A DNA stretch of 64,000 bases from Gammaproteobacteria bacterium (GTDB lineage: Bacteria; Pseudomonadota; Gammaproteobacteria; SZUA-229), in NCBI GenBank assembly GCA_024636785.1, contig JAGXGK010000025.1, positions 19,476 through 83,475 on the forward strand, read 5' to 3'. Positions 24,944 to 49,360 of this stretch are shown piece after piece. A program made the position numbers and the translations under genes. Numbering within the stretch: position 1 is the first letter of the stretch; the number at the start of each line of letters is the position of its first letter. The notes beneath the pieces were generated by a model. That model had not been told where the DNA came from. It searched no databases and worked only from the letters and a program-made list of their open reading frames with translations.

Positions 24944-25180
24944 ATGAAAAATTCATTACCAAATTATCGCGATTCCGGTGAGCCAAAAACACCCGCTCTT
25001 CTGGTTCAGCCAGCAACAGAGTCGGTGCCGAGTCAAATGCAGCCAGTGTCAGCAGCAGCAGAAGAAGGCGGCTTGATGGTTTTCTTCGGTATCGGGATGG
25101 TTATTAATGTTGTCATGATTTTGGCATTCTTTATATGGGCAATTAAGCAGTGGAGAAAACATGATGCCGCAAAGAAATAG
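24944..25180 (+). CDS. small membrane protein
   Basis: 78 aa with one strong TM helix (MVFFGIGMVINVVMILAFFIWAI). Overlaps the start of the SCO gene. Confidence 0.45.
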   Translation: MKNSLPNYRDSGEPKTPALLVQPATESVPSQMQPVSAAAEEGGLMVFFGIGMVINVVMILAFFIWAIKQWRKHDAAKK

Positions 25181-25805
25181 AGGTCTGTATCGGGGTACTA
25201 TACTGCTTGTTCTGTTGTTATCGGTAACAGGGGTCTGGTACGTCAGTACGTCGCCTTCGAGTCCACCGCCCGAGCTGGTGGGAGTGCTCCGGCCAGCGCC
25301 GAAAATACTTAAACCGGTTGAGCTCATTGATCAGAACGGAGACGTGGTCAACACGCAGCTATTTAAGGACAAATGGTCTTTTGTTTTCTTCGGCTACACA
25401 TCCTGTCCCGATATCTGTCCGACTACCCTGCATGTATTAAATGCCGTCACCGATATACTCGGAAAAGATAAAGCCGAGCTGTTTCCGGATACCCAGGTGG
25501 TATTTATTTCAGTGGATCCGGAGCGCGATGCGGTAACTGATCTTGCCGATTACGTGAAATTTTTTAACAGGGATTTTGTGGGATTGACCGGCGATAAAAA
25601 AGATATCGATAATATTGCGCAGCAATTTGGGGCGGGTTATGTCCTCGAAGAAGAAACAGCGCCCGGGCAATACACGGTCGCCCATACCAGCGCTGTTTTT
25701 CTGGTTACACCTGAGTTAGAACTGGTCGCTGCTTTTTCGCAGCCGCACAATCCCAAAACTATTGTCGCTCAGTATGAAAAAATTCGAGCCTATATCTCAG
25801 AATAA
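25161..25805 (+). CDS. SCO/SenC family copper chaperone (copy 1)
   Basis: N-terminal TM anchor, FFGYTSCPDICPTT (CxxxC) and downstream His (VAHTSAVFLV). Confidence 0.88.
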   Translation: MMPQRNRGLYRGTILLVLLLSVTGVWYVSTSPSSPPPELVGVLRPAPKILKPVELIDQNGDVVNTQLFKDKWSFVFFGYTSCPDICPTTLHVLNAVTDILGKDKAELFPDTQVVFISVDPERDAVTDLADYVKFFNRDFVGLTGDKKDIDNIAQQFGAGYVLEEETAPGQYTVAHTSAVFLVTPELELVAAFSQPHNPKTIVAQYEKIRAYISE

Positions 25806-26393: not shown

Positions 26394-26765
26394 TTAGTAA
26401 AATGACATTGGATTGCGCGTGAGTGCGACAGAAACTATGTAGCTAAAACAGAGTAATGCGGCGAGCCACGCGGCTATGCGGATTTTTTTCGTTGCTCCGT
26501 AATGAAGTGCAATCATACCAAGTGCTATGTAAATGACCAGTGCTAAAACTTTGGCGGTTAACCAGTCATGTGTGAAAGGGTACTGGTTTATTTTCATGGT
26601 CAGGACGATGGCACTGGCGAGCAGTAGACTGTCAATGCCAGCCGCCAGTATTCTTACCCATTTTTTCTTCAGAACTTTCGAATCCATAATCATCCACAGA
26701 CCGCGGATGATAAAAAATATCAGCGTGAGAATGACAGTGGATACATGAATGTACTTAAACAGCAT
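26394..26765 (-). CDS. SirB2-like small membrane protein
   Basis: 123 aa with four TM helices. The N-terminus IHVSTVILTLIFFIIRGLWMI resembles the SirB family. Confidence 0.5.
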   Translation of the reverse strand: MLFKYIHVSTVILTLIFFIIRGLWMIMDSKVLKKKWVRILAAGIDSLLLASAIVLTMKINQYPFTHDWLTAKVLALVIYIALGMIALHYGATKKIRIAAWLAALLCFSYIVSVALTRNPMSFY

Positions 26766-26792: not shown

Positions 26793-27836
26793 TTACTGGC
26801 TGCGCAGCTGGTGATTTACAAATAACGCAGCGGTCAGAAGCATTACTGCTCCGCCCTGATGCGCCGCAGCCAGTGCAACAGGAACGATCATCAGCAAAGT
26901 GGAAATGCCCAGAGTGATCTGCAGAGCCAGCGCAGCCAGCAATACATAGATACTGATGTGAGTCATCGCTTCCAGTTCCAGTTTCCTTGTTTTCAGCCAG
27001 AAAGCAGGAATGATTAAAAAAAGCAGGGTCGCCAGTACACGGTGATCAAATTGTACGGTGATAATATTCTCGAAAAAGTTACGCCAGAAGGGCTCCAGTA
27101 AAAACAGTCCATCGGGTATTAATTGTCCATTCATTAAAGGGAATGTATTGAAGGCGAATCCGGCTCGGGTGCCGGCAACAAAGCCGCCAGAGACGATGGT
27201 GATGAAAATAACAGTGGTGATGATTGAGGCCAGCCGGGTGAGTTTTGGCTCGTTCACACGGATTGCAGAGCGTTCTTTTGGCCGCAGTAAATCCAACGCG
27301 ATCCAGAACATATAGGCATAGATAATAATGGCCAGAGTCAGGTGCGCGGTGAGGCGATACTGACTGACATGCGGGTTATCCACTAGGCCGCTTTTTACCA
27401 TATACCAGCCCATTAACCCCTGAAGCCCGCCGAGTACAAACAGGGTGAGCAGTTTGGGGGTAAGCGCTTTGTCGATTTTTCGGGTAAGCAGAAAATACAT
27501 GAATGGAATAAAGAACAGCAGACCAATGCCTCTACCCAGAAGTCGATGTGCATATTCAAACCAGAAAATAGCTTTGAATTCATCCAGTGACATGTGGAAA
27601 TTTTTTAGCTGGAACTCGGGGTATTGCTGGTAAAGATAGAAGGTATGCTGCCAGGCTTCCTGATTAAGCGGTGGCAATATGCCCATTAGTGGTGCCCATT
27701 GCACCATGGAAAGACCCGAGCCGGTTAGGCGTGTTACCCCGCCCAGTACCACCATGCCAAAGATTGTTGCGCAGCAAATAAGTAGCCAGATGGCAATAGC
27801 CTTATTTGAATCATGGTTATCAAGTAATTTAGTCAT
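26793..27836 (-). CDS. ctaA: heme A synthase (COX15/CtaA family)
   Basis: Polytopic, with conserved His blocks FEYAHRLLGRG and VQFDHRVLATL. The ATG at 27836 overlaps the hemerythrin stop (ATGACTAA). Confidence 0.82.
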   Translation of the reverse strand: MTKLLDNHDSNKAIAIWLLICCATIFGMVVLGGVTRLTGSGLSMVQWAPLMGILPPLNQEAWQHTFYLYQQYPEFQLKNFHMSLDEFKAIFWFEYAHRLLGRGIGLLFFIPFMYFLLTRKIDKALTPKLLTLFVLGGLQGLMGWYMVKSGLVDNPHVSQYRLTAHLTLAIIIYAYMFWIALDLLRPKERSAIRVNEPKLTRLASIITTVIFITIVSGGFVAGTRAGFAFNTFPLMNGQLIPDGLFLLEPFWRNFFENIITVQFDHRVLATLLFLIIPAFWLKTRKLELEAMTHISIYVLLAALALQITLGISTLLMIVPVALAAAHQGGAVMLLTAALFVNHQLRSQ

Positions 27837-28239
27837 AAGGTGAATGTGATTTTTCGGCGTTATGCAGATGTGTATCATGAGTTTTGAAGTGCGCCAGAAA
27901 CCAGTTGTTCAGGCGCTCGCGTAATCGTTCGGTGTCAAGCTTTGTACTGGCTTCAACGTCATCGGTGATTTCGCCGATTTCGTCAAGTAGGCGCTCGTGG
28001 TCGGCTCGATGGGCTTCATAATCCTCGTAATTATGTTGTTCCATCCAGCGTTCTTCAAGTGCGAAATGGGAGGATATGCTGCCATAGATGTCACCCAGGC
28101 AACTGATGATGCCATTTTTATCCGCTGTATCGCCCAGCATCTCATAGGCTGTATTAATTAAATTTATTAGTTCCTGATGTTCGTGGTCAACACCGGGAAT
28201 TCCCGTGGAATATTCTTCGCGCCATTCAATTAATGTCAT
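27829..28239 (-). CDS. bacteriohemerythrin
   Basis: Hemerythrin His/Glu/Asp ligand pattern: GVDHEHQELINLIN, HFALEERWM, HRADHERLL, WFLAHFKTHD. Confidence 0.9.
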   Translation of the reverse strand: MTLIEWREEYSTGIPGVDHEHQELINLINTAYEMLGDTADKNGIISCLGDIYGSISSHFALEERWMEQHNYEDYEAHRADHERLLDEIGEITDDVEASTKLDTERLRERLNNWFLAHFKTHDTHLHNAEKSHSPYD

Positions 28240-28545: not shown

Positions 28546-28559
28546 TTGATATAGATCAA
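28546..28559. promoter_or_regulatory. perfect FNR/CRP-family palindrome TTGAT-ATAG-ATCAA
   Basis: Exact consensus 14-mer in the ~490-bp AT-rich divergent region between the hemerythrin-ctaA and HCO operons. Confidence 0.65.
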
Positions 28560-28731: not shown

Positions 28732-28893
28732 ATGACAGAAGAGATTCATATACCCAAACCAGAGCGGATTCCGTTTTTCCAGCGAATGCTGGATAACCCG
28801 TTTTTATTACTCTTTATAGGTGTGGCGATGCCCACGGTTTTCTACGTTCTTTGGGGCGTTATGGAAGTCGCAACAATACCTATCGCCAAATAA
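28732..28893 (+). CDS. 53-aa single-TM micro-protein, candidate HCO subunit IIa-like (absent from ORF track)
   Basis: The ATG is preceded by AAGAGGA. Translation is MTEEIHIPKPERIPFFQRMLDNPFLLLFIGVAMPTVFYVLWGVMEVATIPIAK. It ends 20 nt before subunit II. Confidence 0.6.
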   Translation: MTEEIHIPKPERIPFFQRMLDNPFLLLFIGVAMPTVFYVLWGVMEVATIPIAK

Positions 28894-28913
28894 AAAAATA
28901 AGAGGATAATCTT

Positions 28914-29459
28914 ATGAGCTCATTTTTACCCCCTGCTGACAGGATATGGTGGAAGGTTCCCGTTGGCCGTCAGGAAATTGTCTGGATCAGCATCGCGCTG
29001 GTCTGGTGTTTAATTATGTTTTTTATGATGCCTTACTGGCATGTATACGGGAAACAGAACCTTTCCAGCGAGGCCTACCAGACCAATGCTGAGAAGTTTG
29101 GTGCATCAGTAGAAACTTTTGTTGAGAAATATCAGACTCGTATAGACGAACAATCGGGTATACCAGTCGTAACGCCACCCGCCGGCAGTGATATCTATAT
29201 GCTGGGCAGGCTCTGGCAGTGGTACCCCATTCTTGAACTGGAAAAAGATAAAACCTATCGACTTCATTTAGGTTCGATGGACTGGAACCACGGCTTCTCA
29301 TTGCAGCCGGTTAATATCAATTTACAGGTCGTTCCGGGCTATGAAATGGTTATCAAGATAACCCCTGATCAAGCGGGTGAATATACAGTAGTTTGCAACG
29401 AATTTTGCGGCATCGGTCACCATACCATGGTCGGCAAAATCTACGTGAAGGAGAATTAA
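28914..29459 (+). CDS. heme-copper oxidase subunit II-like (single TM + CuA cupredoxin); norS-like
   Basis: Complete CuA motif: H in DWNHGF, then CNEFCGIGHHTM (CxExCGxxHxxM). One N-terminal TM helix. Confidence 0.85.
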   Translation: MSSFLPPADRIWWKVPVGRQEIVWISIALVWCLIMFFMMPYWHVYGKQNLSSEAYQTNAEKFGASVETFVEKYQTRIDEQSGIPVVTPPAGSDIYMLGRLWQWYPILELEKDKTYRLHLGSMDWNHGFSLQPVNINLQVVPGYEMVIKITPDQAGEYTVVCNEFCGIGHHTMVGKIYVKEN

Positions 29460-29460
29460 G

Positions 29461-31194
29461 ATGGCGAAATTCAGAGTTTGTCCCGATTCGGGCTTCTATT
29501 TTGACAAATCGGCTGAGAGCCTGATGAAAGTCAATGCGGTAGCGGGTGCTGTCTTCCTGCTTATCGCGGGTATACTGGCACTGGGCGTTATCCTGACGCG
29601 CTGGCAGGAAGTACATTTACTACCCGCAGATCTGTTCTATCAGGTATTGACCGCACACGGCATCAATGCCTTGATTTTCTGGGTTATCTTTTTCGAGATA
29701 GCGATTCTTTACTTTGCATCATCGACCTTGTTACGAAGTCGACTGGCTGCGCCTGGTTGGGCATGGGCAGGCTTCGCTTTGATGATCATTGGCGCGGTGA
29801 TGAATAATGTTGCTGTCTTGCAAGGTAATTCCAGTGTTATGATGACATCCTATGTGCCGATGCAGGCGGCCCCGCATTTCTATCTGGGGCTGATACTGTT
29901 CGCGGTCGGCGCACTGATCGGATGCTTTGTGTTTTTGGGGACCTTAGTGATAGCTAAGGACGATCAAACTTACCAGGGATCAGTCCCGCTGGTGACCTTC
30001 GGTGCCTTAACCGCTTGCATTATCGCCATCTTTACGATCGCATCGGGTGCCATTATTCTGTTCCCGACATTTCTCTGGTCGATTGGTTATATCAATCACA
30101 TTGATGCTGAAATGTACCGGATTATCTGGTGGGCATTGGGCCATTCGTCGCAGCAGATTAATGTGGCTGCACACGTTTCAGTCTGGTATCTCATTATCGG
30201 TATCCTGTTTAATGCACGTCCGATGTCTGAGAAGGTCAGTCGCTTTGCCTTCCTGCTCTACATCTTCTTCCTGCAACTGGCCAGTGCCCACCATATTCTG
30301 GTTGACCCGGGTGTAAGTACAGAGTGGAAGATCTTCAATACCAGTTATGCGATGTATCTGGCGGTATTGGCCAGTATGATCCACGGTTTGACCGTACCTG
30401 GCGCGATGGAAGTAGCTCAGCGCGGCAAGGGTTACACCAAGGGTCTGTTCGAATGGTTGCGTAAAGCCCCCTGGGGGAACCCGGTGTTCTCCGGCTTCTT
30501 CTTTGCATTGGTCATTTTCGGCTTCATCGGTGGCATCACCGGTGTGGTTATGGGTACTGAGCAGATTAATCTGATCATCCATAACACCATTTATGTACCT
30601 GCGCATTTCCATGCCACGGTAGCGGTGGGTACGACTCTGACCTTTATGGCCTTGACCTATCTGCTAATTCCGGTGCTGTTCAGACGCGCTCTGTTCCTGC
30701 CCTGGGTGGCCAAAATGCAGCCTTATGTATTTGCCGGCGGCATGACCATCATGATCCTGTTCCTGCTGGGTGCAGGTACTCTGGGCGTCTCACGTCGTCA
30801 CTGGGACATGGACTTCACTGGCGCGGCGCTGAGTTTTGAATACCCGGGTACGGCCTATATGATGATGGCTGTCGGCGGTATTGGCGGTGTACTGGGCGTG
30901 CTTGGTGGTGCTATGTATCTGGTCGTTACCGTGGGATCGTTGCTCTTTGGTAAGAAACTGGAGCCTTCTGCCGGTCTGTTTCAGAGCTTTGGTGTACCTT
31001 TGGCCGCTTCAGCCTACAATATTGACCAGCCAGATCAGTTACAGATGGCACCTAAGCTGGCTGTAGAGGAGCATGGTAGTGGTGGTTTCGAAGCACCGGG
31101 AACGTTTGTTCTGGCTTTGGCCCTGCTGGTCTGCTTCGTTGTTTACTACGCAATCAACTGGGATTATCTGGCCTCAGTCTGGCCAATGGGCTAG
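29461..31194 (+). CDS. heme-copper oxidase subunit I-like, putative sNOR-type NO reductase catalytic subunit; norY-like
   Basis: All six canonical His are present (LTAHGINA; WWALGHSSQQ; LASAHHILVDP; VPAHFHATV). The Tyr of GHPxVY is absent (GHSSQQ). Confidence 0.75.
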   Translation: MAKFRVCPDSGFYFDKSAESLMKVNAVAGAVFLLIAGILALGVILTRWQEVHLLPADLFYQVLTAHGINALIFWVIFFEIAILYFASSTLLRSRLAAPGWAWAGFALMIIGAVMNNVAVLQGNSSVMMTSYVPMQAAPHFYLGLILFAVGALIGCFVFLGTLVIAKDDQTYQGSVPLVTFGALTACIIAIFTIASGAIILFPTFLWSIGYINHIDAEMYRIIWWALGHSSQQINVAAHVSVWYLIIGILFNARPMSEKVSRFAFLLYIFFLQLASAHHILVDPGVSTEWKIFNTSYAMYLAVLASMIHGLTVPGAMEVAQRGKGYTKGLFEWLRKAPWGNPVFSGFFFALVIFGFIGGITGVVMGTEQINLIIHNTIYVPAHFHATVAVGTTLTFMALTYLLIPVLFRRALFLPWVAKMQPYVFAGGMTIMILFLLGAGTLGVSRRHWDMDFTGAALSFEYPGTAYMMMAVGGIGGVLGVLGGAMYLVVTVGSLLFGKKLEPSAGLFQSFGVPLAASAYNIDQPDQLQMAPKLAVEEHGSGGFEAPGTFVLALALLVCFVVYYAINWDYLASVWPMG

Positions 31195-31211
31195 CGTTAG
31201 TAACATCTCAT

Positions 31212-31251
31212 AAAAAACGCGGGAAAGCCTCTGGCTGTCCCGCGTTTTTTT
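31212..31251 (+). terminator. rho-independent terminator after HCO subunit I
   Basis: ACGCGGGA...TCCCGCGT stem followed by T7. Confidence 0.85.
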
Positions 31252-31490
31252 ATGCTTAAACCTAAATCCGTGGCTTAACCGAGGCGTCTGGCACAAGCCC
31301 CTGGCTCCACAGCGGATCAAAAAATGCCCGCTTAACCTAAGGGTGAAGCTAAGATTTTTTGAAACCCCTGTGAAACCAATATCTTGCACCATGCATCTAC
31401 GTTTAAATCACGGATTCAGCTTTAAAGAAATCTGTTTTCACACTTTTATGATACCCTTTTCAAATTATTCCACTTTGAGCTTAGATAAGT

Positions 31491-32342
31491 ATGAAGTTAT
31501 TTCTGGTTTTCAGCTTTTTACTGAATTTATTGTTCTTTCACCTTTCTGCTTATGCAACTGCACCGCTGGAGAAAGAAATTCCCATCCAAAAACGGGCGGA
31601 TGCAGCAGCAAGCTTTGACTACGATAGCGCCCTTAGAATTAGTCGAGAGGCTATTGATAACCAATTAGGGGAATATGCATTTACCAATGCCGAAGGTCAG
31701 GCAGTTGCAATGAGTGATTTCGCGGGCAAGCCGCTGGTCTTAAGCATGGTTTTTACCAGCTGTTATCAGATCTGTCCGATGACAGCCCGGCATCTGTCCA
31801 AGGTGGTGGAAAAGGCACGTGACGCCCTGGGCAAGGACAATTTTGCTGTCGCCATTGTCGGTTTTGACACTCCCGTTGATACGCCCGAAGCCATGCAGTA
31901 TTTTGCCAACAAGCAGGGCGTTCATAACAAGGATTGGCACTTATTGAGTATTTCCGCTGATGATGTAAAAGCCCTGTCGAAGGATACTGGCTTTATATAT
32001 TTTCCTTCGGCCAGTGGATTTGATCATCTGATTCAGACCACCATCATTGATGCAGAGGGAAAAGTTTATCGGCAGGTGTATGGTCAGGTATTTGATACGC
32101 CCATGTTAATTGAGCCACTGAAGGAGTTGATATTAGGTCGGCCACAGCCGGATCAGACTTTTCTTTCTGATCTTTCTAACAAGGTCAGGTTTTTCTGTAC
32201 CACCTATGATCCGGTTCGTGATAATTATTATTTTGACTATTCGTTGTTTCTGGGTATTCTAATAGGTGGCTCAATTATTTTGTTCACATTTGTGGTTATA
32301 TTCAGAGAGTGGCGTAAAGGTAATCAACGCTCTCATACTTGA
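31491..32342 (+). CDS. SCO/SenC family copper chaperone (copy 2) with C-terminal TM anchor
   Basis: Signal peptide, thioredoxin-fold FTSCYQICP (CxxxC), His in GFDHLIQT and C-terminal TM helix LFLGILIGGSIILFTFVVIF. Confidence 0.8.
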   Translation: MKLFLVFSFLLNLLFFHLSAYATAPLEKEIPIQKRADAAASFDYDSALRISREAIDNQLGEYAFTNAEGQAVAMSDFAGKPLVLSMVFTSCYQICPMTARHLSKVVEKARDALGKDNFAVAIVGFDTPVDTPEAMQYFANKQGVHNKDWHLLSISADDVKALSKDTGFIYFPSASGFDHLIQTTIIDAEGKVYRQVYGQVFDTPMLIEPLKELILGRPQPDQTFLSDLSNKVRFFCTTYDPVRDNYYFDYSLFLGILIGGSIILFTFVVIFREWRKGNQRSHT

Positions 32343-32413
32343 TATGTATCATTAGAGACTAATATAGCAAAGTGCTAAAATTCATCCGTCCATTCATTTG
32401 AGAGAAAAATTCT

Positions 32414-33976
32414 GTGTTGATCAATCCTATGAAGAGAGCCTATCTGGCTCTGGAATCCTGGTTCAATATTTCTTTTGGCACACATTGGAATCCAATGTAC
32501 CATCTGGGCACATTGACATTTTTTTTGTTCTGGATCATTCTGGTTACGGGTCTTTATCTGTTTGGGTTTTTTCATGGCAGTATCGATGGCGCTTATGACT
32601 CTGTCGAATATATCACTCACGATCAGTGGTATGCGGCAGGTGTGATGCGAAGCCTGCATCGTTACGCTTCCGATGCGGCGATTATTACCATTCTGCTGCA
32701 CCTGTTCAAAGAGCTGGCCTCGGGCCGTTATCACGGTGCCCGCTGGTTTTCCTGGGTATCAGGCTTGCCAACACTCTGGCTGGTAGTGACACTGGGTATA
32801 ACGGGCTACTGGCTGGTATGGGACGAACTGGGGCAATACGTGGCCATTGGTTCTGCTAGGCTGCTGGACTCCCTGCCCATATTTTCCGGTTCCATGGCCA
32901 GCAACTTCCTGCAAGGGCAGATGACAGATCGCTTCTTTATTCTTATAGAATTTTTGCATCTACTGGGTCAGCCGCTAATACTGTTTTTTCTGTTATGGCT
33001 GCACGTCAAACGACTTTCGAACGTCAATATAAATCCACCACGCGGTCTGGCTATAGGTTGTTTTTTAGCCCTGCTGGCATTGTCATTTATCAAGCCTGCG
33101 GTGAGTCATGCCCCGGCTAATTTGAGTTCAATGCCAACAGTGCTGGAGCTCGACTGGTTCTACCTGAACGCCTATCCATTGATGGATTACTGGTCAGAAG
33201 GTAAAACATGGTTGTTGGCAACCGCCATCACAGTTATATTGATGCTGCTGCCATTGCTACCGACAAAGAAAGCTGTCCCCGCTGCGGTGGTTGATCTCGC
33301 GCACTGCAATGGTTGCGAATTGTGTTTTGATGACTGCCCCTTTGAAGCAATCTCAGTGCAGGCGCGTACTGACGGCAGAAAATTTGAAAAGGAAGTTGTT
33401 GTCGATCCCTCCCTATGTGCATCCTGTGGAATTTGTATGGGCTCGTGTCCCTCCTCAAATCCATTTAGACAGTCCAATGAAGAGCTTAAAACGGGTATTG
33501 ATATGCCGTCGTTGCCGGTCGACAAAGTGCGTACCTTGACCGAACAGGCGGTAACATCAATGACCGGTTCCGCCAATGTTCTTCTGATCGGCTGTGAGCA
33601 CGGGTTTAATGTCAAGCAGCTTGATAATAATGAAACCGGAAGTGTGAAGTTAATTTGTAGCGGTATGATTCCACCCTCACTGATTGAATATGCATTAAAG
33701 AAAGGCGCAGACGGTGTGATGATTGTAGGTTGTCGCCACAATGACTGCTTCTATCGTTTTGGCAATCTCTGGATAGACAAGCGATTTTCCGGTGAACGCA
33801 AGCCGATACTCAGGAGCCGTGCAGATCGGCGTCGTATTAAAGTATTTGGCGGCGCTGAAACGGATAAAAAACTAATTGAAAAAGAACTGGAAGTTTTTCG
33901 CCATGAATTACTGGCGATAACCGAGCAAACTGATCTGCCTGAACAGGCTGAAATTAAAGAGTCTCCAGATGTTTAA
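32414..33976 (+). CDS. fusion protein: dihaem cytochrome b N-domain + 2x[4Fe-4S] ferredoxin + MvhD/FlpD-like domain
   Basis: Haem b His pairs are SLHRYASDAAIITILLH (H-x13-H) and FLHLLGQPLILFFLLWLH (H-x14-H). Fe-S motifs are CNGCELCFDDCP and CASCGICMGSCP. The MvhD-like block is KLICSGMIPPSLIEYALKKGADGVMIVGCRHNDCFY. Confidence 0.8.
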   Translation: MLINPMKRAYLALESWFNISFGTHWNPMYHLGTLTFFLFWIILVTGLYLFGFFHGSIDGAYDSVEYITHDQWYAAGVMRSLHRYASDAAIITILLHLFKELASGRYHGARWFSWVSGLPTLWLVVTLGITGYWLVWDELGQYVAIGSARLLDSLPIFSGSMASNFLQGQMTDRFFILIEFLHLLGQPLILFFLLWLHVKRLSNVNINPPRGLAIGCFLALLALSFIKPAVSHAPANLSSMPTVLELDWFYLNAYPLMDYWSEGKTWLLATAITVILMLLPLLPTKKAVPAAVVDLAHCNGCELCFDDCPFEAISVQARTDGRKFEKEVVVDPSLCASCGICMGSCPSSNPFRQSNEELKTGIDMPSLPVDKVRTLTEQAVTSMTGSANVLLIGCEHGFNVKQLDNNETGSVKLICSGMIPPSLIEYALKKGADGVMIVGCRHNDCFYRFGNLWIDKRFSGERKPILRSRADRRRIKVFGGAETDKKLIEKELEVFRHELLAITEQTDLPEQAEIKESPDV

Positions 33977-34481
33977 TTCACAAAATAAATTTGTCAGGTA
34001 TGCTTTACAGGCGATTAATTATGCCGTTTTTATCGCGATAGTTGGCTACTTCTCAACCTCACCTTCGTATCGGCAGTTAGCTGATGATGAAGCAATCATC
34101 ACTATTTCTATTAGCCATGCGGGTGAGTTAAAAGAGCTGTGTCAGAGGCGTAGCCAGGAAGAATTGATGGCATTACCACCTAACATGAGAGCACCTATGG
34201 AATGCTCACGGGAACGCTCACCGGTCATTATCGAGGTACTGCTTGATGGGCAGCCGATGTATTCACATAAGGCTGAAGCACCGGGACTCTACAATGATAG
34301 CGGTATTGATATTTACCATACTTTAAAGGTGTCTGCAGGCAGCCATCATCTCGCTCTCAAGATGGATGACAGCGTGCTTAAGGAGGGCTTCACCCATCAT
34401 TTCAGCCAGGATGTGGAGATTGCACCAGCTGAGATATTGTTGATTGGTTTTGAATCCGGCCGGGGTTTTGTTATCAGATAA
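33969..34481 (+). CDS. hypothetical single-TM protein co-transcribed with the cyt b-FeS fusion
   Basis: 8-nt overlap with the upstream gene. N-terminal TM helix INYAVFIAIVGYF. No family recognised. Confidence 0.55.
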   Translation: MFNSQNKFVRYALQAINYAVFIAIVGYFSTSPSYRQLADDEAIITISISHAGELKELCQRRSQEELMALPPNMRAPMECSRERSPVIIEVLLDGQPMYSHKAEAPGLYNDSGIDIYHTLKVSAGSHHLALKMDDSVLKEGFTHHFSQDVEIAPAEILLIGFESGRGFVIR

Positions 34482-34512: not shown

Positions 34513-34696
34513 AGGGATCCGGAACATACTAATATACCATCACGAATCCCGTCTTCAGGCCATCTTTGGCCGCGCCTCAATCGCAAAATCCTCGCCCTAG
34601 TAGCCCTGCTACGCCTACGATTTTGTTCAATTGGCGCGACCAAATATGACCTAAATTCGGGCGCGATCCAGGTACATTAGTATGTTCTGGGTCCCT
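34513..34696. mobile_element. 184-bp palindromic MITE-like element
   Basis: 25-bp terminal inverted repeats AGGGATCCGGAACATACTAATATAC / GTACATTAGTATGTTCTGGGTCCCT match at 22/25. The interior is also self-complementary (GGCCGCGCCTCAATCGCAAAATC vs GATTTTGTTCAATTGGCGCGACC). No coding capacity. Confidence 0.7.
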
Positions 34697-34878
34697 TATT
34701 TAGTGGCCAGATATTGAATTAAATTAAATGAACTCACGGCCAGAACAAAAATAATAGCAAAGAACACCAGATCCCGATGTTTGAACTGTTTTCCTCGAGC
34801 CTGTTCAACGCGGGTAAGAATCCAGCTTGATCCAAAGTAGAGCACTAAGCCTGCTGTTGTAAAATAAACAAATTCCAT
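34696..34878 (-). CDS. possible small membrane protein
   Basis: 60 aa with two hydrophobic helices. Weak support. Confidence 0.3.
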   Translation of the reverse strand: MEFVYFTTAGLVLYFGSSWILTRVEQARGKQFKHRDLVFFAIIFVLAVSSFNLIQYLATK

Positions 34879-34951: not shown

Positions 34952-35392
34952 TTATAGCTGTTGCGGATACATATGGAAAACGAACAGATATATCACGACC
35001 CCGGTAATCGAAACATACAACCAGACAGGTAAGGTCCAGCGCGCTATGCGAGGATGTTGTTTGATGTTGCCCCGTAATGCAAGTGTCGCGGTGGTAATAA
35101 CCAGAGGTACGAGTAGCATGGCGAGAATGACATGCGTACTGAGAATTGTAAAATAAACAGGCCTTATTATTCCCGTTCCGGCGAATGGGTGGAAGCCAAC
35201 ATTAATATGATATATGGAATAGGACAGTAAAAAAATGGCAGAAGTAATCAGGGTTGCAGTCATGCATATCTGGTGGGCACGGAGGTTCTTCTTTTTTATA
35301 TGATAAAAGCCGCTCAATAGCAAAATGGCTGCCAGCGCATTTAATAATGCCTGCACGTGCGGAAGATAAGGGATTAATGTTTCGATAGTCAC
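34952..35392 (-). CDS. DUF420 membrane protein (CtaM-like oxidase assembly factor family)
   Basis: 146 aa with four TM helices. HIKKKNLRAHQ and HPRIARWTLPVWLYVS blocks are typical of DUF420. Confidence 0.7.
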   Translation of the reverse strand: MTIETLIPYLPHVQALLNALAAILLLSGFYHIKKKNLRAHQICMTATLITSAIFLLSYSIYHINVGFHPFAGTGIIRPVYFTILSTHVILAMLLVPLVITTATLALRGNIKQHPRIARWTLPVWLYVSITGVVIYLFVFHMYPQQL

Positions 35393-38809: not shown

Positions 38810-39982
38810 TTAAAGGCCGGTTTTGTGCGCGCGCACGGTGGCAAAAATGCCGCTGGGTTTGTTGGCCGGCAAGCGCACGCGTTCTTCAAAGCTTTCAGTG
38901 TCATAAACCACCAGCTGGTCGTCATCACGAATCGATGCCCATAGCTCTTCACCGCGAGGTTCAAACTCCATGTGCAGCACGCCCTTGCCGGGCTGTAATT
39001 TTTTGATGATCTTCAGCGACTGTGTATCAATCACTTGCAGGGTGTCGTTGTTCGGTATGGCAAAGTTGACCCAGACGTGGCGGCCATCAGGGCGGGCCAT
39101 GACAAAAATCGGCTGGCCGTGTACTTTAATGCGACCGGCTTCGGACCAGTTCCGGGTGTCGATCACCAGCACTTCGTGGCGACCCACGGCAGGTACAAAT
39201 GCATACTGTCCAGCCATCGCCCAGCCTTCCAGATGGGGCATTTTATAAACCGGCAGCTTCTGCTCGCCTTTACCGTAGTGGTCCAGTATACGTTTCACCC
39301 CGGCATCGAGATTCCATAGATCAAGGAGCGCCATGCCGTCTTCTCCAAACAGGCCGGCAATGTAATAACGGCCATCGGGTGAAATCAGCGCATCGTAGGG
39401 ATTGCGGCCGATGTCCTTGAATTTCTGAATCGAGGGTTTGTCTGGCCGGGACATATCGGCCACCCAGATTTCATCCGCATCCCACAGGCTGAAAACAAAC
39501 TTCTGCCCGGGGGCATCAACCAGGCCGATGACTTTTGAAGTCTGTTTCGTATCGCCATAGCTTGCCGGAATATCGGCCACCAGTGCCAGTGTTGCGGCAT
39601 CAAATATCTTCACGCCACCGGGCTCGTAATTGGAAACTGCCACCAGCGAGCCGTCCTGGGAGATGGCACCGCCGATGCTGTTACCCGCCTGCATAATGCG
39701 CTTGACGATTTTTCGCGTCAGCATATCCACCTTGGTGAGGCCGCCATCACGGCCAAAAATGTAGGCGTAACGCTCGTCGCGGGAATAGACCGCCGAGGCG
39801 TGCGACAGATCGCCCAGACCTTCAATGCGACCCAGGCTGGAGTTGCCGGTGGTTTCGATAATCTGAATACTGCCGCTGGCGCGTTCGATCACCAGGGCAA
39901 GATCACCGGTGCCGCGTAAATCCGCTGCATGCACCGGGATAAGCAAGACCAGTAAGAGTGAAAAGAGGGTGGTGCGGATCAT
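38810..39982 (-). CDS. nirF: NirF, cd1-like beta-propeller heme d1 biosynthesis protein
   Basis: Internal start MIRTTLFSLLLVLLIPVHA (signal). GTGDLALVIERASGS and a propeller body with no haem c motif. ATGA overlap with the nirC stop. Confidence 0.85.
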   Translation of the reverse strand: MIRTTLFSLLLVLLIPVHAADLRGTGDLALVIERASGSIQIIETTGNSSLGRIEGLGDLSHASAVYSRDERYAYIFGRDGGLTKVDMLTRKIVKRIMQAGNSIGGAISQDGSLVAVSNYEPGGVKIFDAATLALVADIPASYGDTKQTSKVIGLVDAPGQKFVFSLWDADEIWVADMSRPDKPSIQKFKDIGRNPYDALISPDGRYYIAGLFGEDGMALLDLWNLDAGVKRILDHYGKGEQKLPVYKMPHLEGWAMAGQYAFVPAVGRHEVLVIDTRNWSEAGRIKVHGQPIFVMARPDGRHVWVNFAIPNNDTLQVIDTQSLKIIKKLQPGKGVLHMEFEPRGEELWASIRDDDQLVVYDTESFEERVRLPANKPSGIFATVRAHKTGL

Positions 39983-40329
39983 TGGGAAATCCCCTGTTTG
40001 AGCTGCCTGGCGATCCACAGCGCATCGTCGGCGGAGAGCATGGTCTTCCAGCCGGGCATGGCGGTATTGGCATGGCCTTCGAGAATAGTGACCACCAGAT
40101 ACTCGGTCGGTTTGCCTTCGAGCTGTGCCGGCAGCAGGGCGGGGCCGAGGCCGCCTTTCAGGGTCATACCGTGGCAGGAGCCGCAATCCTGTTTCAGCAG
40201 GTGCATCAGCTCGCTCTGGCGCGATGCCGCGACCTCTGCCAGTGCCGGTTCCGAGATTAATCCTGAAACCAGCATCAGACTAACTAAGAACAGCGGTGTC
40301 TTCAACAAAATCAGACTCCTGTAGTGCAC
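39979..40329 (-). CDS. nirC: NirC monohaem cytochrome c55X
   Basis: Signal peptide and a single CGSCHG. 116 aa, between nirE and nirF. The listed start overlaps the nirE 3' end by 50 nt. Confidence 0.8.
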   Translation of the reverse strand: MHYRSLILLKTPLFLVSLMLVSGLISEPALAEVAASRQSELMHLLKQDCGSCHGMTLKGGLGPALLPAQLEGKPTEYLVVTILEGHANTAMPGWKTMLSADDALWIARQLKQGISQ

Positions 40330-41288: not shown

Positions 41289-43073
<1,785 letters not shown>

Positions 43074-43260: not shown

Positions 43261-43302
43261 TGTTATTTGTTATTTGTTATTTGTTATTTGTTATTTGCTG
43301 TT
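43261..43302. repeat. heptanucleotide tandem repeat (TGTTATT)x5 plus one degenerate unit
   Basis: Read directly from the sequence. The stop codon of the NosR/NirI-like gene lies inside the array. Confidence 0.95.
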
Positions 43303-44820
43303 TGTGGAGGCAACTGTTTCTTTTAATGTTTTGCGTTTTTCCTGTCGTTTGCGTTTATCCACCAATGGCGGACACTTTTTGTCATTCCAGTAAGTAACCT
43401 GACAATCCAGGCAGTAATGGCATTCCTGACTGATGATTTCGCCGGTTAAACGAATCGCGCCGACTTCACATTCTGTCCGGCAGGTCTGGCAGGGGCGGCC
43501 ACATTCCTTGCGTCGGCGTAACCAGTCAAAGATTTTAAATTTTGAAGGGAAGGTGAGGGCGGCACCCAGTGGACAGAGATAACGACAGTAAAATTTCCGG
43601 TTCCATATTGAAATAAGGATGAGGCCGGCGGCGTAAACCACGTAGCCCCATTCACGTTGAAAATGTAATGTAACGGCGGTTTTGAAAGGCTCGATTTCGG
43701 AGAACACTTCGGCCTGCGCCAGTGACTGCAACGACAGGCCGAAAAGGCCCAGCATGATTAGGTATTTAATTGCCCACAGGCGTTCGTGCACGACAACGGG
43801 GAATTCGTAAGAGCGGATGCCGAGCTTCTCTCCCAGTTTGTAGACGATTTCCTGAATGGCGCCGAAAGGACAAAGCCAGCCACAATAGACGCCACGACCC
43901 CACAGCAATATGGTCATGGCTACGAAGGTCCAGAGGATAAACATCATCGGGTCAATCATGAAGGTTTCCCAGCTGAAGCCGTGTATCACCGAACTGGTAA
44001 AAGTCAGTACATTGACGATGGAAAGCTGTGCGAGAGAATACCAGCCGATAAAAATGACGGTATAAACCAGATAGCCGTAACGCAAATATATGAGCAGTGA
44101 TGGATGATGAGCCAGCCAGTCCTGGAAAATAAGAATGAAAAGCAGCAAGGACAGCCCTATTAACAGCACGATGATCTGGAACGTTTTATCGCGCCAGGCA
44201 TAAACCCAGATAGGCTCCTCTGCTTCAAGATCGGCCGTGTGCTGTGTGGCTCCCTCTCCGATCAATCCACGTGATATGGCGATTTTCCGTAACGGCTTCA
44301 TGATGGTGGCATTCAGCACCATAGCGGTAATGGTGGCGCCGGATATGCCGTCCAGAGTGACGTAGCCTTCACGTCCACTGCCACCCAGCTGGACACGGTT
44401 ACCGGCATTCAGGCCCAAATACTGGTTTTTGAAATCCGACAGATCCTGTTCGGAAACGCCAGCCAGTAAAATCGGCTCCTGATGTTTGACAATTTCAACA
44501 CCGGTGATTTTCCCGCTTAAATCAAAACCGACCAGAGTATGAATCGGTTTGCCCGAATAGGCCGGTATGGGCATGACATGATCAGTGAAAAACACATAAC
44601 CCAGCAAGCGTTTACCCTGATAAACCGCTGCCGATTCGGGTTCCCCCTCAAATGGCCCCAAATTGTCAGCAGCGGGGAAAAATTGCAGAGCAAAAGGCGT
44701 AGCTTCCGCTACCGGGTTGTTTTTAGTGAAGGTGTTTGCGTCGGCCGTTCCGAATAGAAGGCATGATATTACGACAATACACACCAGGTAACTTCGGCAG
44801 GGTTGAGTGTTCATGAACAT
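43291..44820 (-). CDS. short NosR/NirI-family membrane FMN/Fe-S protein
   Basis: Periplasmic FMN-bind-like GISGATIT, 5-6 TM helices, CX3CP motifs (CGWLCP, CRYLCP) and C-terminal Cys clusters CGRPCQTCRTEC and CHYCLDCQ. Confidence 0.75.
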   Translation of the reverse strand: MFMNTQPCRSYLVCIVVISCLLFGTADANTFTKNNPVAEATPFALQFFPAADNLGPFEGEPESAAVYQGKRLLGYVFFTDHVMPIPAYSGKPIHTLVGFDLSGKITGVEIVKHQEPILLAGVSEQDLSDFKNQYLGLNAGNRVQLGGSGREGYVTLDGISGATITAMVLNATIMKPLRKIAISRGLIGEGATQHTADLEAEEPIWVYAWRDKTFQIIVLLIGLSLLLFILIFQDWLAHHPSLLIYLRYGYLVYTVIFIGWYSLAQLSIVNVLTFTSSVIHGFSWETFMIDPMMFILWTFVAMTILLWGRGVYCGWLCPFGAIQEIVYKLGEKLGIRSYEFPVVVHERLWAIKYLIMLGLFGLSLQSLAQAEVFSEIEPFKTAVTLHFQREWGYVVYAAGLILISIWNRKFYCRYLCPLGAALTFPSKFKIFDWLRRRKECGRPCQTCRTECEVGAIRLTGEIISQECHYCLDCQVTYWNDKKCPPLVDKRKRQEKRKTLKETVASTNSK

Positions 44821-45497: not shown

Positions 45498-46064
45498 ATG
45501 AATCAAAATACAACTATGTTCGGTGTTTCACTAGTTCTCCTCACGCTCATCGTGGCGGTCATATTGGGTTTCATGACGGGGCCAACCAGCCCTCTAACCT
45601 GGTTGCTACTGGCAATATTGATTGCGGTTCCGTTTTTGTACCGGAAAATTGCGGCCAAAGATTTTCTCGAATGGAAGGGTTCATACAGTGTCGGTATTGA
45701 TTCCATCGATCAGCAGCACAGAAGATTAGTCAATCTGATTAACCAGTTACAGACAGCGGTGAAGTACTCCACCGGTGAAGAGTTTGAGCGCGAAGCACTG
45801 GATGAACTGGTGGACTACACCAGAACCCACTTTAAGTACGAAGAAAAGCTGATGGAGCAGAATGATTATCCTGACTTCGAACAGCACAAAGCGCAGCACG
45901 AAATGATGATCAAAAAGGTAAAGCAGGTGCTGGCCGAGTACGAACATGAACCCGAGACGGCCATGAACAATGCCGTTAGCTTTCTCAAAGGATGGCTAAT
46001 CAACCACATCAATGGTACCGACCAGCAGTACAGTCGCTACCTGATTGATAAAGGCGTGAAGTAA
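45498..46064 (+). CDS. membrane-anchored bacteriohemerythrin
   Basis: Two N-terminal TM helices followed by the hemerythrin ligand pattern (IDQQHRRLVNLIN, HFKYEEKLM, HKAQHEMMI, WLINHINGTD). Confidence 0.85.
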   Translation: MNQNTTMFGVSLVLLTLIVAVILGFMTGPTSPLTWLLLAILIAVPFLYRKIAAKDFLEWKGSYSVGIDSIDQQHRRLVNLINQLQTAVKYSTGEEFEREALDELVDYTRTHFKYEEKLMEQNDYPDFEQHKAQHEMMIKKVKQVLAEYEHEPETAMNNAVSFLKGWLINHINGTDQQYSRYLIDKGVK

Positions 46065-47770: not shown

Positions 47771-49360
47771 TTAGTGGCTGGTGCCTTCCAGATATCGGGT
47801 TTTGTTGTAGACATTGTATTTGCCCGAGGGTTTGTTCATTGGCAGGCGCTTGATTTCTTCGAGGCTGTTGGCGTCGTAAACAATCACTGCGCCGTCGGTA
47901 TCCCAGATGCTGAGCAGGGCGTATTTGCCGTCGCGGGTGAACTCGACGTGAGCGGCGGTTTTGCCGGGGGCGGGGCGCAGGGTTTTGACGATTTCCAGGG
48001 TGCTTTTGTCGATTACATGCACGGCATCTTTATTCGGGCCGAAGAAAACATCAACCCAGGCGTAGGGACTGTTTTTATGGCTGCGCATGAAGAAGCCGGG
48101 TCCGAGGGTTTCGATGTTTTTGATGGTTTTCCAGCTTTCCATATCGATGACGCTGACGTTATTAGCTTTCAGGTTGGGCGTGGCCAGCACGGTGCGGCCC
48201 TGATATTCCCAGGTAATGCCGGAGCCGAGGTGGGGCATGCCGGGCAGCGCCAGATCAGGCACGATGACGCGACCGACATCCAGATTGACCACCTGACCCT
48301 TGCCTTCGCGCGAGGCACCGATCAGGTTCACGTAGTCCTGGTCGAAGAAAAAATCATCCAGATAATCGCTGACTTCGATTTTTCTTACCGGGAAGGGATC
48401 CGGCGTGATTTTCTCGCCGGAATCTTCGCGGTAATCGTGTACCCAGAAACCAAAGCCGGCAGGCGGATTATCATCGTAGGAGATTTCCCACAGTTCGGGG
48501 ATATCCTTTAAGGCGGCGATGAAACTGTTGCGTGGTGGTGCGGTATAGACGGCGCTGACGCGGGAAGTTTTGCCGGTATGGTCTTTGGCTTCGAACAATT
48601 TGATCGGGCTTAGGTCTTTGGCATCGAGCAGTACCAGAGTGTGCGGCAGGTAATTGGCGACCATGACATAGCGACCATCAGCAGAGACCGCCTGATTACG
48701 GGTGTTGATGCCGGCACGGATTTCGGCGACCAGTTTCAGGTTGTAAATATCGTATTTGCTGATCCAGCCATCGCGTGAGGCAAAGTAGACGAAGCGGCCG
48801 TCCGGTGAATATTTGGGGCCGCCGTGCAGGGCAAAGCGCGACTTGAAGCGGTGGATGGGTTCCAGTTTATCGCCATCGAGCAGGGTGACGTGGTGGTCGC
48901 CCAGCTCAACCACCAGAAACAGGTTCAGCAGATCGGCGACTTCAAACACGGGCTTGTCGGAGAGTTCGCTTGCTTTGTTATGAATGATCTGGCTGGCTCT
49001 GATTTCAGCCATGCCCCACACCGGCATCTGTTCCAGCGGTGTATAGATATAGTCAACCAGTGACCGGGTTTCTGTCTCGGAAAGCTTTTCCCTGAAGGCC
49101 GGCATCTGGGTGGCGACGCGGCCATTGGTAATCACTGTAGCCGCGTCTTTCATTTTCAGTCGTTTAAGATTTTCCGGCAGCAGTGCAGGCCCCATGCCGC
49201 CAAGGCGATGTTCATTGTGACATTCAGCACAATGATCCCGATAGAGTTGCTGTGTCTTGTTGACAGTCTTAGCCTCGGCCGATTCAGCCTGTGCCGGAGC
49301 CGAAAGTGTTGTTGCCAGCAGGCAGAAAGTGCAGAGCGTAAAAAAGGTTTTGTGGTTCAT
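47771..49360 (-). CDS. nirN: NirN-like cytochrome cd1-family protein
   Basis: 529 aa. Signal peptide, CAECHN haem c domain, cd1-type propeller and C-terminal KPSGKYNVYNKTRY. No other nirN candidate in the window. Confidence 0.65.
   Translation of the reverse strand: MNHKTFFTLCTFCLLATTLSAPAQAESAEAKTVNKTQQLYRDHCAECHNEHRLGGMGPALLPENLKRLKMKDAATVITNGRVATQMPAFREKLSETETRSLVDYIYTPLEQMPVWGMAEIRASQIIHNKASELSDKPVFEVADLLNLFLVVELGDHHVTLLDGDKLEPIHRFKSRFALHGGPKYSPDGRFVYFASRDGWISKYDIYNLKLVAEIRAGINTRNQAVSADGRYVMVANYLPHTLVLLDAKDLSPIKLFEAKDHTGKTSRVSAVYTAPPRNSFIAALKDIPELWEISYDDNPPAGFGFWVHDYREDSGEKITPDPFPVRKIEVSDYLDDFFFDQDYVNLIGASREGKGQVVNLDVGRVIVPDLALPGMPHLGSGITWEYQGRTVLATPNLKANNVSVIDMESWKTIKNIETLGPGFFMRSHKNSPYAWVDVFFGPNKDAVHVIDKSTLEIVKTLRPAPGKTAAHVEFTRDGKYALLSIWDTDGAVIVYDANSLEEIKRLPMNKPSGKYNVYNKTRYLEGTSH

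Follow-up and report, generated by a model that had tools for sequence, protein, structure and literature searches.

A probable proteobacterial eNOR operon between the nap and nir genes of a gammaproteobacterial contig

Which enzyme would reduce nitric oxide (NO) in a marine bacterium whose denitrification locus carries nap and nir genes but shows no NO reductase (NOR) of the cNOR or qNOR type? The question is raised by a 64,000-nucleotide stretch of contig JAGXGK010000025.1 (positions 19,476 to 83,475, forward strand) from the Gammaproteobacteria bacterium assembly GCA_024636785.1 (GTDB lineage SZUA-229), which we call the window and within which all positions are given. A first-pass annotation of the window had singled out a cluster of six co-oriented genes at 28732-34481, with a haem-copper subunit as the sole NOR candidate, and had likened it to the norSY-senC-orf1 cluster (sNOR) known from ammonia oxidizers. 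We conclude, with a probability of about 0.83, that the cluster is a proteobacterial eNOR operon. The eNOR family is already known, and the locus adds one ordinary member to it and no new concept.

The six open reading frames (ORFs) were all found at 28732-34481 in the ORF list of the 64-kb window, and their contents were as the annotation had described them (ORF list, Pfam, and NCBIfam). Together with two signals they make up the following layout:

28546-28559 (+): FNR/Dnr/NnrR-type box, TTGATATAGATCAA, a perfect palindromic match.
28732-28893 (+): 53-amino-acid peptide with a single transmembrane (TM) helix, a putative subunit-IIa-like third subunit; no Pfam or NCBIfam match.
28914-29459 (+): probable eNOR subunit II, 181 amino acids, one TM helix and a CuA cupredoxin domain (Pfam COX2).
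29461-31194 (+): probable eNOR subunit I, 577 amino acids, the catalytic haem-copper-superfamily subunit (Pfam COX1 PF00115, E = 2e-60).
About 31209-31254 (+): terminator-like hairpin followed by a run of seven U residues (U7); RNA fold of -26.6 kcal/mol.
31491-32342 (+): SCO1/SenC copper chaperone, 283 amino acids, with an N-terminal signal sequence and a C-terminal TM anchor (Pfam SCO1-SenC, 2.6e-14).
32414-33976 (+): fusion of Cytochrome_B, two Fer4 domains, and FlpD/MvhD, 520 amino acids (Pfam Cytochrome_B, Fer4_7, FlpD).
33969-34481 (+): 170-amino-acid protein (p170) with an N-terminal TM helix and a β-sandwich, described from its conservation and an AlphaFold model.

The subunit II stop and the subunit I start are 2 bp apart. 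When subunit I was aligned by phmmer with the ba3 oxidase of Thermus thermophilus, the six histidine ligands that the first-pass annotation had reported all fell on ba3 ligands: H66, H228, H277, H278, H382, and H384 correspond to ba3 H72, H233, H282, H283, H384, and H386, respectively. The annotation was also right that the residue of the His-Tyr cross-link is missing. In the motif GH228-S-S-Q-Q232, Q232 lies on ba3 Y237, so that a glutamine takes the place of the cross-link tyrosine, and Gln231, which is likewise invariant, lies on ba3 V236. The H-x-x-Q-Q motif is kept in 239 of the 239 full-length homologues examined. In the same alignment Y243, S305, H308, and T311 fall on ba3 Y248, S309, T312, and T315 and form a K-channel-like set, of which S305 and H308 are conserved in proteobacterial and Chloroflexi sequence groups alike. 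By its sequence, then, the protein is a haem-copper enzyme of B-family descent that has a CuA subunit and lacks the His-Tyr cofactor.

The residue at the tyrosine position is a key to the families of the superfamily: it is Y in O2 reductases, E in cNOR and qNOR, N in sNOR and CuANor/bNOR, Q in eNOR, and D in gNOR (PMC8756737, Table A4, after Hemp & Gennis 2008), and a glutamine in this column has been used as the eNOR diagnostic (PMC8756737, Fig. 6 legend). The serine corresponding to ba3-S309 is retained in B1 oxidases, eNOR, and bNOR and absent in sNOR, where a conserved glutamate is found at another site of the channel region (Murali et al. 2024, PMC11214002). The glutamine at the tyrosine position and the retained S305 therefore point to eNOR and away from sNOR. 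The remaining families differ in other ways. Where B-family O2 reductases have GHPxVY, the window protein has GHSSQQ. The cNOR and qNOR enzymes have the glutamate and either a NorC haem-c subunit or a fused quinol domain, not CuA, whereas here a glutamine is accompanied by a CuA subunit. In gNOR one active-site histidine is replaced by aspartate and subunit II is without CuA ligands, whereas here the three histidines and the CuA ligands are intact. The bNOR enzymes (qCuANOR) have the asparagine and are known only from Bacillales, whereas the protein here has glutamine and has relatives in Proteobacteria, Chloroflexi, Thermus, and Halobacteria. No NCBIfam model names the family of subunit I; the matches were to CtaD and SoxB only, far under cutoff.

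Judged by the taxa of its clade, the phylogeny of subunit I would fit the residue key as well. Neighbour joining of 41 sequences over 531 columns, with 200 bootstraps, places subunit I with 99.5% bootstrap support inside a clade of proteins with the QQ motif, among whose members are sequences from Natrarchaeobius, Ardenticatenales, Thermomicrobium, Thermus megaplasmids, Magnetospirillaceae, Burkholderiales, and Woeseiaceae. These taxa fit the published distribution of eNOR (Halobacteria, Chloroflexi, Thermus, Magnetospirillaceae, Burkholderiales, and Gammaproteobacteria). The ba3-type sequences form a clade of their own, with 100% support, that is separate from the QQ clade. The nearest grade that retains the tyrosine consists of GHxxQY sequences. 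The eNOR family evolved from B-type haem-copper oxygen reductases.

A neighbour search covered 1.84 billion cluster representatives, and the full-length sequences among the 150 best were aligned. Full-length neighbours were few and fell into four motif groups: GHxxQQ, GHxxQY, FH[VI]xHY, and the ordinary GHPxVYFW of ba3-type proteins. The GHxxQQ group holds the query, P0121, P0124, and P0130, the last from the haloarchaeon Natrarchaeobius. The GHxxQY group comprises P0132, P0134 (Hodarchaeales), P0139 (Thermoproteota), and P0155, the closest relatives of the eNOR clade; these proteins may be the oxygen-reductase stock that gave rise to eNOR. The FH[VI]xHY group contains three sequences, one of them named Dehalococcoidia, and branches next after GHxxQY.

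The sNOR reading of the first-pass annotation has to be weighed against these results. The two systems share a good deal: an enzyme of B-family origin that has lost the tyrosine, a CuA subunit, an adjoining SCO/SenC gene, and a proposed NO reductase function, and the order subunit II, subunit I, SCO, extra ORF in the window resembles norSY-senC-orf1 of ammonia oxidizers. However, sNOR has asparagine at the tyrosine position and has lost the serine, whereas the window protein has Gln232 there and S305 is present and conserved. The full-length sequences that were aligned out of the 150 best representatives include no H-x-x-x-N protein, the clade holds the taxa that carry eNOR, and no ammonia oxidizers or nitrifiers are among the best 80 genomes. 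We therefore do not assign the cluster to sNOR, for which we see hardly any chance.

The eNOR-like proteins are widespread. At least 590 GTDB species encode relatives, the same order as the 547 eNOR genomes in Table 1 of Murali et al. (PMC11214002). Searching plasmids by tblastn, we found QQ proteins from Defluviimonas (58% identity), on T. thermophilus megaplasmids (41-46%), and on a Thermomicrobium roseum megaplasmid (46%); toward the thermophilic and archaeal eNOR branch as a whole, subunit I identity is about 39-46%. The T. thermophilus QQ genes adjoin nirS, nirK, and a gene for an Rrf2 regulator. These close homologues were found on Thermus plasmids, but WP_015717644.1 of the published eNOR tree was not. 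The Thermomicrobium homologue retrieves Chloroflexi sequences, including Ardenticatenales. In a search of 5.8 billion proteins with this homologue, the 120 best matches were of Chloroflexi type and none was named Rhodothermus, so the link to the characterized enzyme is indirect. Plasmid homologues from Geobacillus, Deinococcus, and Methylobacterium were tried as sNOR references and discarded, all of them being ordinary GHPxVY ba3-type oxidases.

The characterized enzyme is that of Rhodothermus marinus. The first-pass annotation had described the family as one with little biochemical characterization, which does not hold for eNOR: the R. marinus enzyme, once purified, was shown to reduce NO (0.68 per second at 25 °C) but not O2 (Murali et al. 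2024, PMC11214002). It contains haem As at both sites and needs microoxic conditions for expression; CtaA is found in many eNOR operons, and proton uptake by a K-channel-like path, which would make the reaction electrogenic, has been proposed for the family (PMC11214002). The window operon resembles the eNOR family (Hemp & Gennis 2008; Murali et al. 2024) in the glutamine in place of tyrosine, the small peptide and CuA subunit II upstream, the K-channel-like residues with the S309-equivalent serine, the adjoining CtaA, and the denitrification context. It also shares the database mislabels "cytochrome c oxidase subunit I" and "cbb3-type" that have been reported for eNOR.

We compared the operon with its relatives by running the window proteins by tblastn against 80 genome loci and the plasmid loci. 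The 53-amino-acid peptide and subunit II lie upstream of subunit I in 74 of the 80 related loci having upstream DNA. In subunit II, which the first-pass annotation had named a CuA subunit, the CuA ligand set is complete (H125, C161, C165, H169, and M172) and conserved in 74 orthologues, and the best PDB matches are ba3 subunit II and CuA domains (E of about 1e-14). A further conserved residue is E21, where the TM helix ends toward the cytoplasm; judged by its local E-x-x-W pattern, E21 may be the counterpart of ba3 II-E15. The small peptide has the conserved motif LDNPFxLLFxG...PTVFY..WG, and small ORFs of 41-61 amino acids precede subunit II in Thermus, Thermomicrobium, and Defluviimonas too. 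It is probably a subunit-IIa-like third subunit, by analogy with the order small peptide, II, I, which we take to be that of the ba3 cbaDBA operon.

With subunit I as query, the closest solved structures were ba3 oxidases (T. thermophilus and Aquifex aeolicus, E of about 1e-38 to 1e-42), and no NOR structure was matched in the PDB at E <= 1e-3. This could be taken to mean that the enzyme is a high-affinity B-type terminal oxidase for microaerobic respiration, with NO reduction as a side reaction, a reading that parallels the argument of Sedlacek et al. for sNOR in Nitrosomonas. The ba3 oxidases of T. thermophilus and A. aeolicus also have a CuA subunit II with one TM helix and have part of the K-path positions in common with the window protein; haem A synthesis requires O2, and a hemerythrin is encoded alongside; the FNR-type box would suit low-oxygen induction as well as denitrification; and the nearest relatives outside the clade, the archaeal GHxxQY proteins, retain the tyrosine. 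The exchange of both Y237 and V236 for glutamine and the separate, fully supported ba3 clade nevertheless set the window protein apart, and the His-Tyr cofactor is missing from every one of the 239 homologues. An alternative tyrosine of the C-family kind is not found either: the corresponding position, which we take to be six residues before the HH pair, holds L271, and the invariant Y267 would lie about three turns away, as judged by inspection of the sequence. Moreover, none of several donors supported O2 reduction by R. marinus eNOR, and the locus context is one of nap and nir genes. We do not expect an oxygen-reductase function here and regard the terminal oxidase as quite improbable, and we keep to eNOR.

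An eNOR with A-type haems would need haem A, and the genes around the operon suit this. The flanks are as the first-pass annotation had listed them, with a second SCO, CtaA, DUF420, and a hemerythrin close by and nap and nir genes on either side. Upstream lie napFDAGHBC, the canonical SCO, a 166-amino-acid protein without known function, SirB, CtaA, and bacteriohemerythrin. Downstream follow the 60-amino-acid TM protein, DUF420, nirJ, nirDLGH, nirF, a small cytochrome c, SUMT, NirS, a NosR-like protein, another two cd1 proteins, and a NirT fusion. The features next to the operon are:

25161-25805 (+): second, canonical SCO1/SenC copper chaperone (Pfam SCO1-SenC, 3e-40).
26394-26765 (-): SirB-family membrane protein, in the same direction as hemerythrin-ctaA (Pfam SirB, 2e-38).
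26793-27878 (-): haem A synthase CtaA, start probably at 27836 (Pfam COX15-CtaA, 4e-114; 347-amino-acid gene call).
27829-28239 (-): bacteriohemerythrin, divergent from the operon (NCBIfam bacteriohemerythrin, 3e-27).
34696-34878 (-): 60-amino-acid TM protein, convergent with the operon and co-conserved with DUF420 (tblastn).
34952-35392 (-): DUF420 membrane protein (Pfam DUF420, 2.9e-39).

In the gene calls of the identical contig, the end of the hemerythrin gene overlaps the start of ctaA by 8 nucleotides. Several of these neighbours recur beside eNOR in the tblastn comparison: CtaA in about 30 related loci, the 60-amino-acid protein in about 30 on the same relative strand, a second SCO in about 25, DUF420 in about 20 plus the locus L093, and SirB in a minority. 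Hemerythrin is also present in the Defluviimonas operon and in L093. The DUF420 protein is presumably CtaM-like; CtaM is needed for haem-A oxidase function in Staphylococcus.

The regulatory signals would tie the operon to the same context. The TTGATATAGATCAA box starts 186 bp before the first ATG of the operon. Scanning the window for such boxes gave 10 sites where 3.6 were expected, and boxes with one mismatch lie ahead of napF, the nirE/nirS region, and another cd1 gene. With up to one mismatch allowed, 46 of 71 related loci have a box in the 320 bp that precede the small gene, compared with 3.9% of random 320-bp windows. This conservation supports control by an FNR/Dnr/NnrR-type regulator, whose binding at the box we infer from the sequence. 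Another one-mismatch FNR-type box, TTGATATGTATCAT at 32339-32352, lies over the SCO stop codon and ends about 60 bp before the start of the cytochrome b-iron-sulfur (cyt b-FeS) gene; it may serve as a promoter element inside the operon or have arisen by chance.

The hairpin after subunit I (-26.6 kcal/mol, z = -7.45, U7 tail) was matched in stability by 0 of 200 shuffled sequences. A simple terminator scan did not pick it up at 31209-31254, which we attribute to its long loop region. Because of this terminator-like hairpin, the six genes may form two transcription units, with the accessory genes probably expressed at a lower level or from a start of their own.

Does this enzyme serve as the respiratory NOR of the locus? 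It might instead detoxify NO or act on an unrecognized substrate, with a cNOR or qNOR encoded elsewhere in the genome doing the respiratory work. Only 64 kb of the genome is visible, several NOR types occur within one organism in many cases, the turnover of the characterized eNOR is low (0.68 per second), and most relatives carry in the operon a haem O synthase gene and also have a second COX1-like gene, both of which are missing here. In the window itself, the first-pass annotation's statement that there is neither cNOR nor qNOR and a single NOR candidate stands: among the scanned ORFs of at least about 400 amino acids, a NorB-sized cutoff that is our own assumption, no norB or norZ was found and subunit I alone matched COX1, smaller ORFs having been scanned in part. 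Against a mere detoxifying role, the cluster lies between nap and the nirS/haem-d1 genes, all of them preceded by similar FNR-type boxes, and eNOR is the sole NOR in R. marinus and Ferrigenium, both denitrifiers. We consider the detoxification reading unlikely, if slightly less so than the terminal oxidase, and take the eNOR to be the candidate NOR of this locus.

Two genes that are common in relatives could not be found. Of the related loci, 62 carry a gene for haem O synthase, which as a rule sits between subunit I and SCO; in the window, the 297-bp gap at 31195-31490 holds the terminator-like hairpin where relatives carry this gene, which is likewise missing at that position in the relative L035. 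About 40 related eNOR loci also have a second, degenerate COX1-family gene coding for about 460-473 amino acids (for example L093:8449-9870, L091:9725-11104, and L022:13881-15137). Its product has the motifs WGGGH-T-L-Q-F, "EHRH" for the HH pair, and HYH, and the gene comes after that for p170 or, in the closest relatives, on the opposite strand upstream. Possibly this product is the "eNOR scaffold protein" of Ferrigenium.

Several points weigh against the eNOR assignment as set out so far. The tree was calculated by neighbour joining and not by maximum likelihood. It was built without the characterized R. marinus eNOR, and membership in the family is argued from the signature residue, the taxa of the clade, and descriptions in the literature. 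The tree was likewise without an sNOR reference sequence, so the distance from sNOR is indirect as well. Haem O synthase is absent from the whole 64-kb window, unlike in most proteobacterial eNOR operons, and the window has no copy of the degenerate COX1-like gene that many of them have. The hairpin parts the structural genes from the accessory genes, and there may be another NOR elsewhere in the genome.

The accessory trio of SCO (SCO283), cyt b-FeS-MvhD fusion, and p170 follows subunit I on the same strand in 53 of the 60 proteobacterial-type loci with enough downstream DNA; a script counted 50, and L047, L054, and L062, which contain all three genes and had failed its positional filter, were added by hand. 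The exceptions are the Parabeggiatoa/Thioploca and Magnetococcales loci, L052 (without SCO), and L071, and the whole trio is absent from the Thermus and Thermomicrobium loci. SCO283, which lies downstream of subunit I in most loci, is unusual in having a TM anchor at its C terminus. Across 57 orthologues it keeps C91-x3-C95, the copper-binding histidine of GFDH, and, ahead of that anchor, an "FCTxYDP" motif. The fusion would join a cytochrome b6-like dihaem membrane domain to two [4Fe-4S] ferredoxin clusters and to an MvhD/FlpD-like domain of the [2Fe-2S] kind. In the cyt b fusion, H82, H96, H182, and H197 are conserved with the spacing of cytochrome b6, as are two CxxCxxCxxxCP motifs and C393, C415, C440, and C444 in the MvhD-like part. 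Its PDB matches are cyt b6, FwdF, and MvhD, and six predicted TM segments would put the FeS domains in the cytoplasm. In the plasmid collection, the only full-length homologue of the fusion sits in the Defluviimonas eNOR operon.

The third protein, p170, has no family match in Pfam or NCBIfam, and each of its 415 homologues is unnamed or "hypothetical." H50, C58, C79, R74, R81, R83, and D134 are invariant, and there is an R-x-R-E-R patch. An AlphaFold model of the family, taken from database homologues, has a TM helix and a β-sandwich (predicted local distance difference test score, pLDDT, of 90.9); compared with the PDB by Foldseek it gave no match at E <= 0.001 and generic β-sandwich matches above that. 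We liken p170 to Cox11- or PCuAC-like chaperones by analogy only. The p170 gene overlaps the cyt b-FeS gene by 8 nucleotides, and in three genomes cyt b-FeS-MvhD and p170 form a single ORF (L050:10646-12697, L064:10655-12724, and L080:5286-7382), which argues that the two act together. Two distant p170 homologues were looked up (on three contigs), and both lie in eNOR operons, which also hold NnrS, a Crp/Fnr regulator, hemerythrin, DUF420, and SCO.

The trio is a dedicated eNOR companion, and we would guess that it works as a transmembrane module for redox reactions or for maturation. A bolder idea, which we put forward tentatively as something possible yet rather doubtful, is an eNOR-specific transmembrane redox machine of a mechanistically undescribed kind. 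The co-inheritance in 53 of 60 loci, the gene fusion in three genomes, and a p170 without known relatives by sequence or fold are compatible with it. Such a machine might shuttle electrons between the quinone pool or the cytoplasm and the periplasmic face, and might thereby help to fill the CuA or non-haem metal site or to keep haem A synthesis going when O2 has almost vanished. Or else the trio might link the oxidation of quinol straight to the reduction of NO, as part of a supercomplex.

A comparable operon has been described in Ferrigenium straubiae, with genes for eNOR II, eNOR I, haem O synthase, sco1, a "scaffold" protein, and cyt b-[Fe-S] fusions; it is expressed under nitrate-reducing/denitrifying conditions, and the authors suggest a supercomplex (bioRxiv 10.64898/2026.01.22.701106). 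The window has eNOR II, eNOR I, sco1, and a cytochrome b-[Fe-S] fusion in common with it, whereas haem O synthase, the "scaffold" gene, and a second protein, cyt b-FeS-FAD-NADH, are found in Ferrigenium and not in this window. The cyt b-FeS genes, "rather unusual" in the words of the preprint, accompany eNOR in 53 of the 60 proteobacterial loci of our comparison. Near a distant eNOR operon we also observed a cyt b-Fer2-FAD-NAD-binding fusion (L091:12728-14614), absent from the window, that matches the "quinol:NAD+ oxidoreductase" candidate of the Ferrigenium eNOR operon.

Further into the nir region, the window encodes three full-length cytochrome c plus cd1 proteins (41289-43031, 47771-49360, and 51744-53408 (-)) in addition to nirF (38810-40186). 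By their sequences, the three cd1 proteins are candidates for the catalytic NirS and for NirN-like roles. Between two of the cd1 paralogues, at 49826-51595 (-), lies a gene for a 589-amino-acid fusion of a NapC/NirT tetrahaem cytochrome with an ethylbenzene-dehydrogenase-type (EB_dh) domain. The NosR-like protein (43291-44820, minus strand, 509 amino acids) adjoins nirS; its match to the NosR model is confined to the C-terminal 300 positions, with an FMN_bind domain besides. No nosZ was found among the window ORFs scanned. A second, longer hemerythrin-domain protein of 188 amino acids is encoded in the nir region at 45498-46064 (+), followed by an ORF of 127 amino acids without known function and a class-3 lipase gene.

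From these genes we propose how the enzyme may work. A periplasmic cytochrome c, one of which is encoded in the adjacent nir cluster, would reduce CuA, and electrons would pass from CuA to the low-spin haem (H66/H384) and on to a binuclear site formed by the high-spin haem (H382) and a non-haem metal (Fe or Cu) on H228, H277, and H278, lined by Q231 and Q232. There, two NO, two electrons, and two protons would yield nitrous oxide (N2O) and water. The protons would come from the cytoplasm by a K-channel-like path through II-E21, I-Y243, S305, H308, and T311, and since they would be taken up from the cytoplasm, the reaction would be electrogenic. Because there is no cross-link tyrosine, four-electron reduction of O2 is not expected. 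The haems are probably of A type and would be made by the adjacent, O2-requiring CtaA, for which the hemerythrin may supply or buffer O2. Both SCO proteins would load CuA, DUF420 would help in the assembly of the haem-A enzyme, and the FNR/Dnr-type box would put the operon, along with nap and nir, under low-oxygen or NO control.

In public annotation, this protein and thousands of near-identical ones are named "cytochrome c oxidase subunit I" or "cbb3-type," and under such names their hosts pass for denitrifiers that lack an NO reductase. Naming eNOR genes has by now become routine in metagenomes; in an estuary study, 860 of 1486 nor genes were enor, the most abundant and most transcribed nor type (PMC13592168). 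The main remaining interest lies with the conserved cyt b-FeS-MvhD and p170 companions, which are near-universal in Proteobacteria. Once the window protein is recognized as an eNOR, the nap-nirS locus becomes a coherent nitrate-to-N2O pathway, one that may contain an energy-conserving NO reduction step still dependent on trace O2 for haem A.

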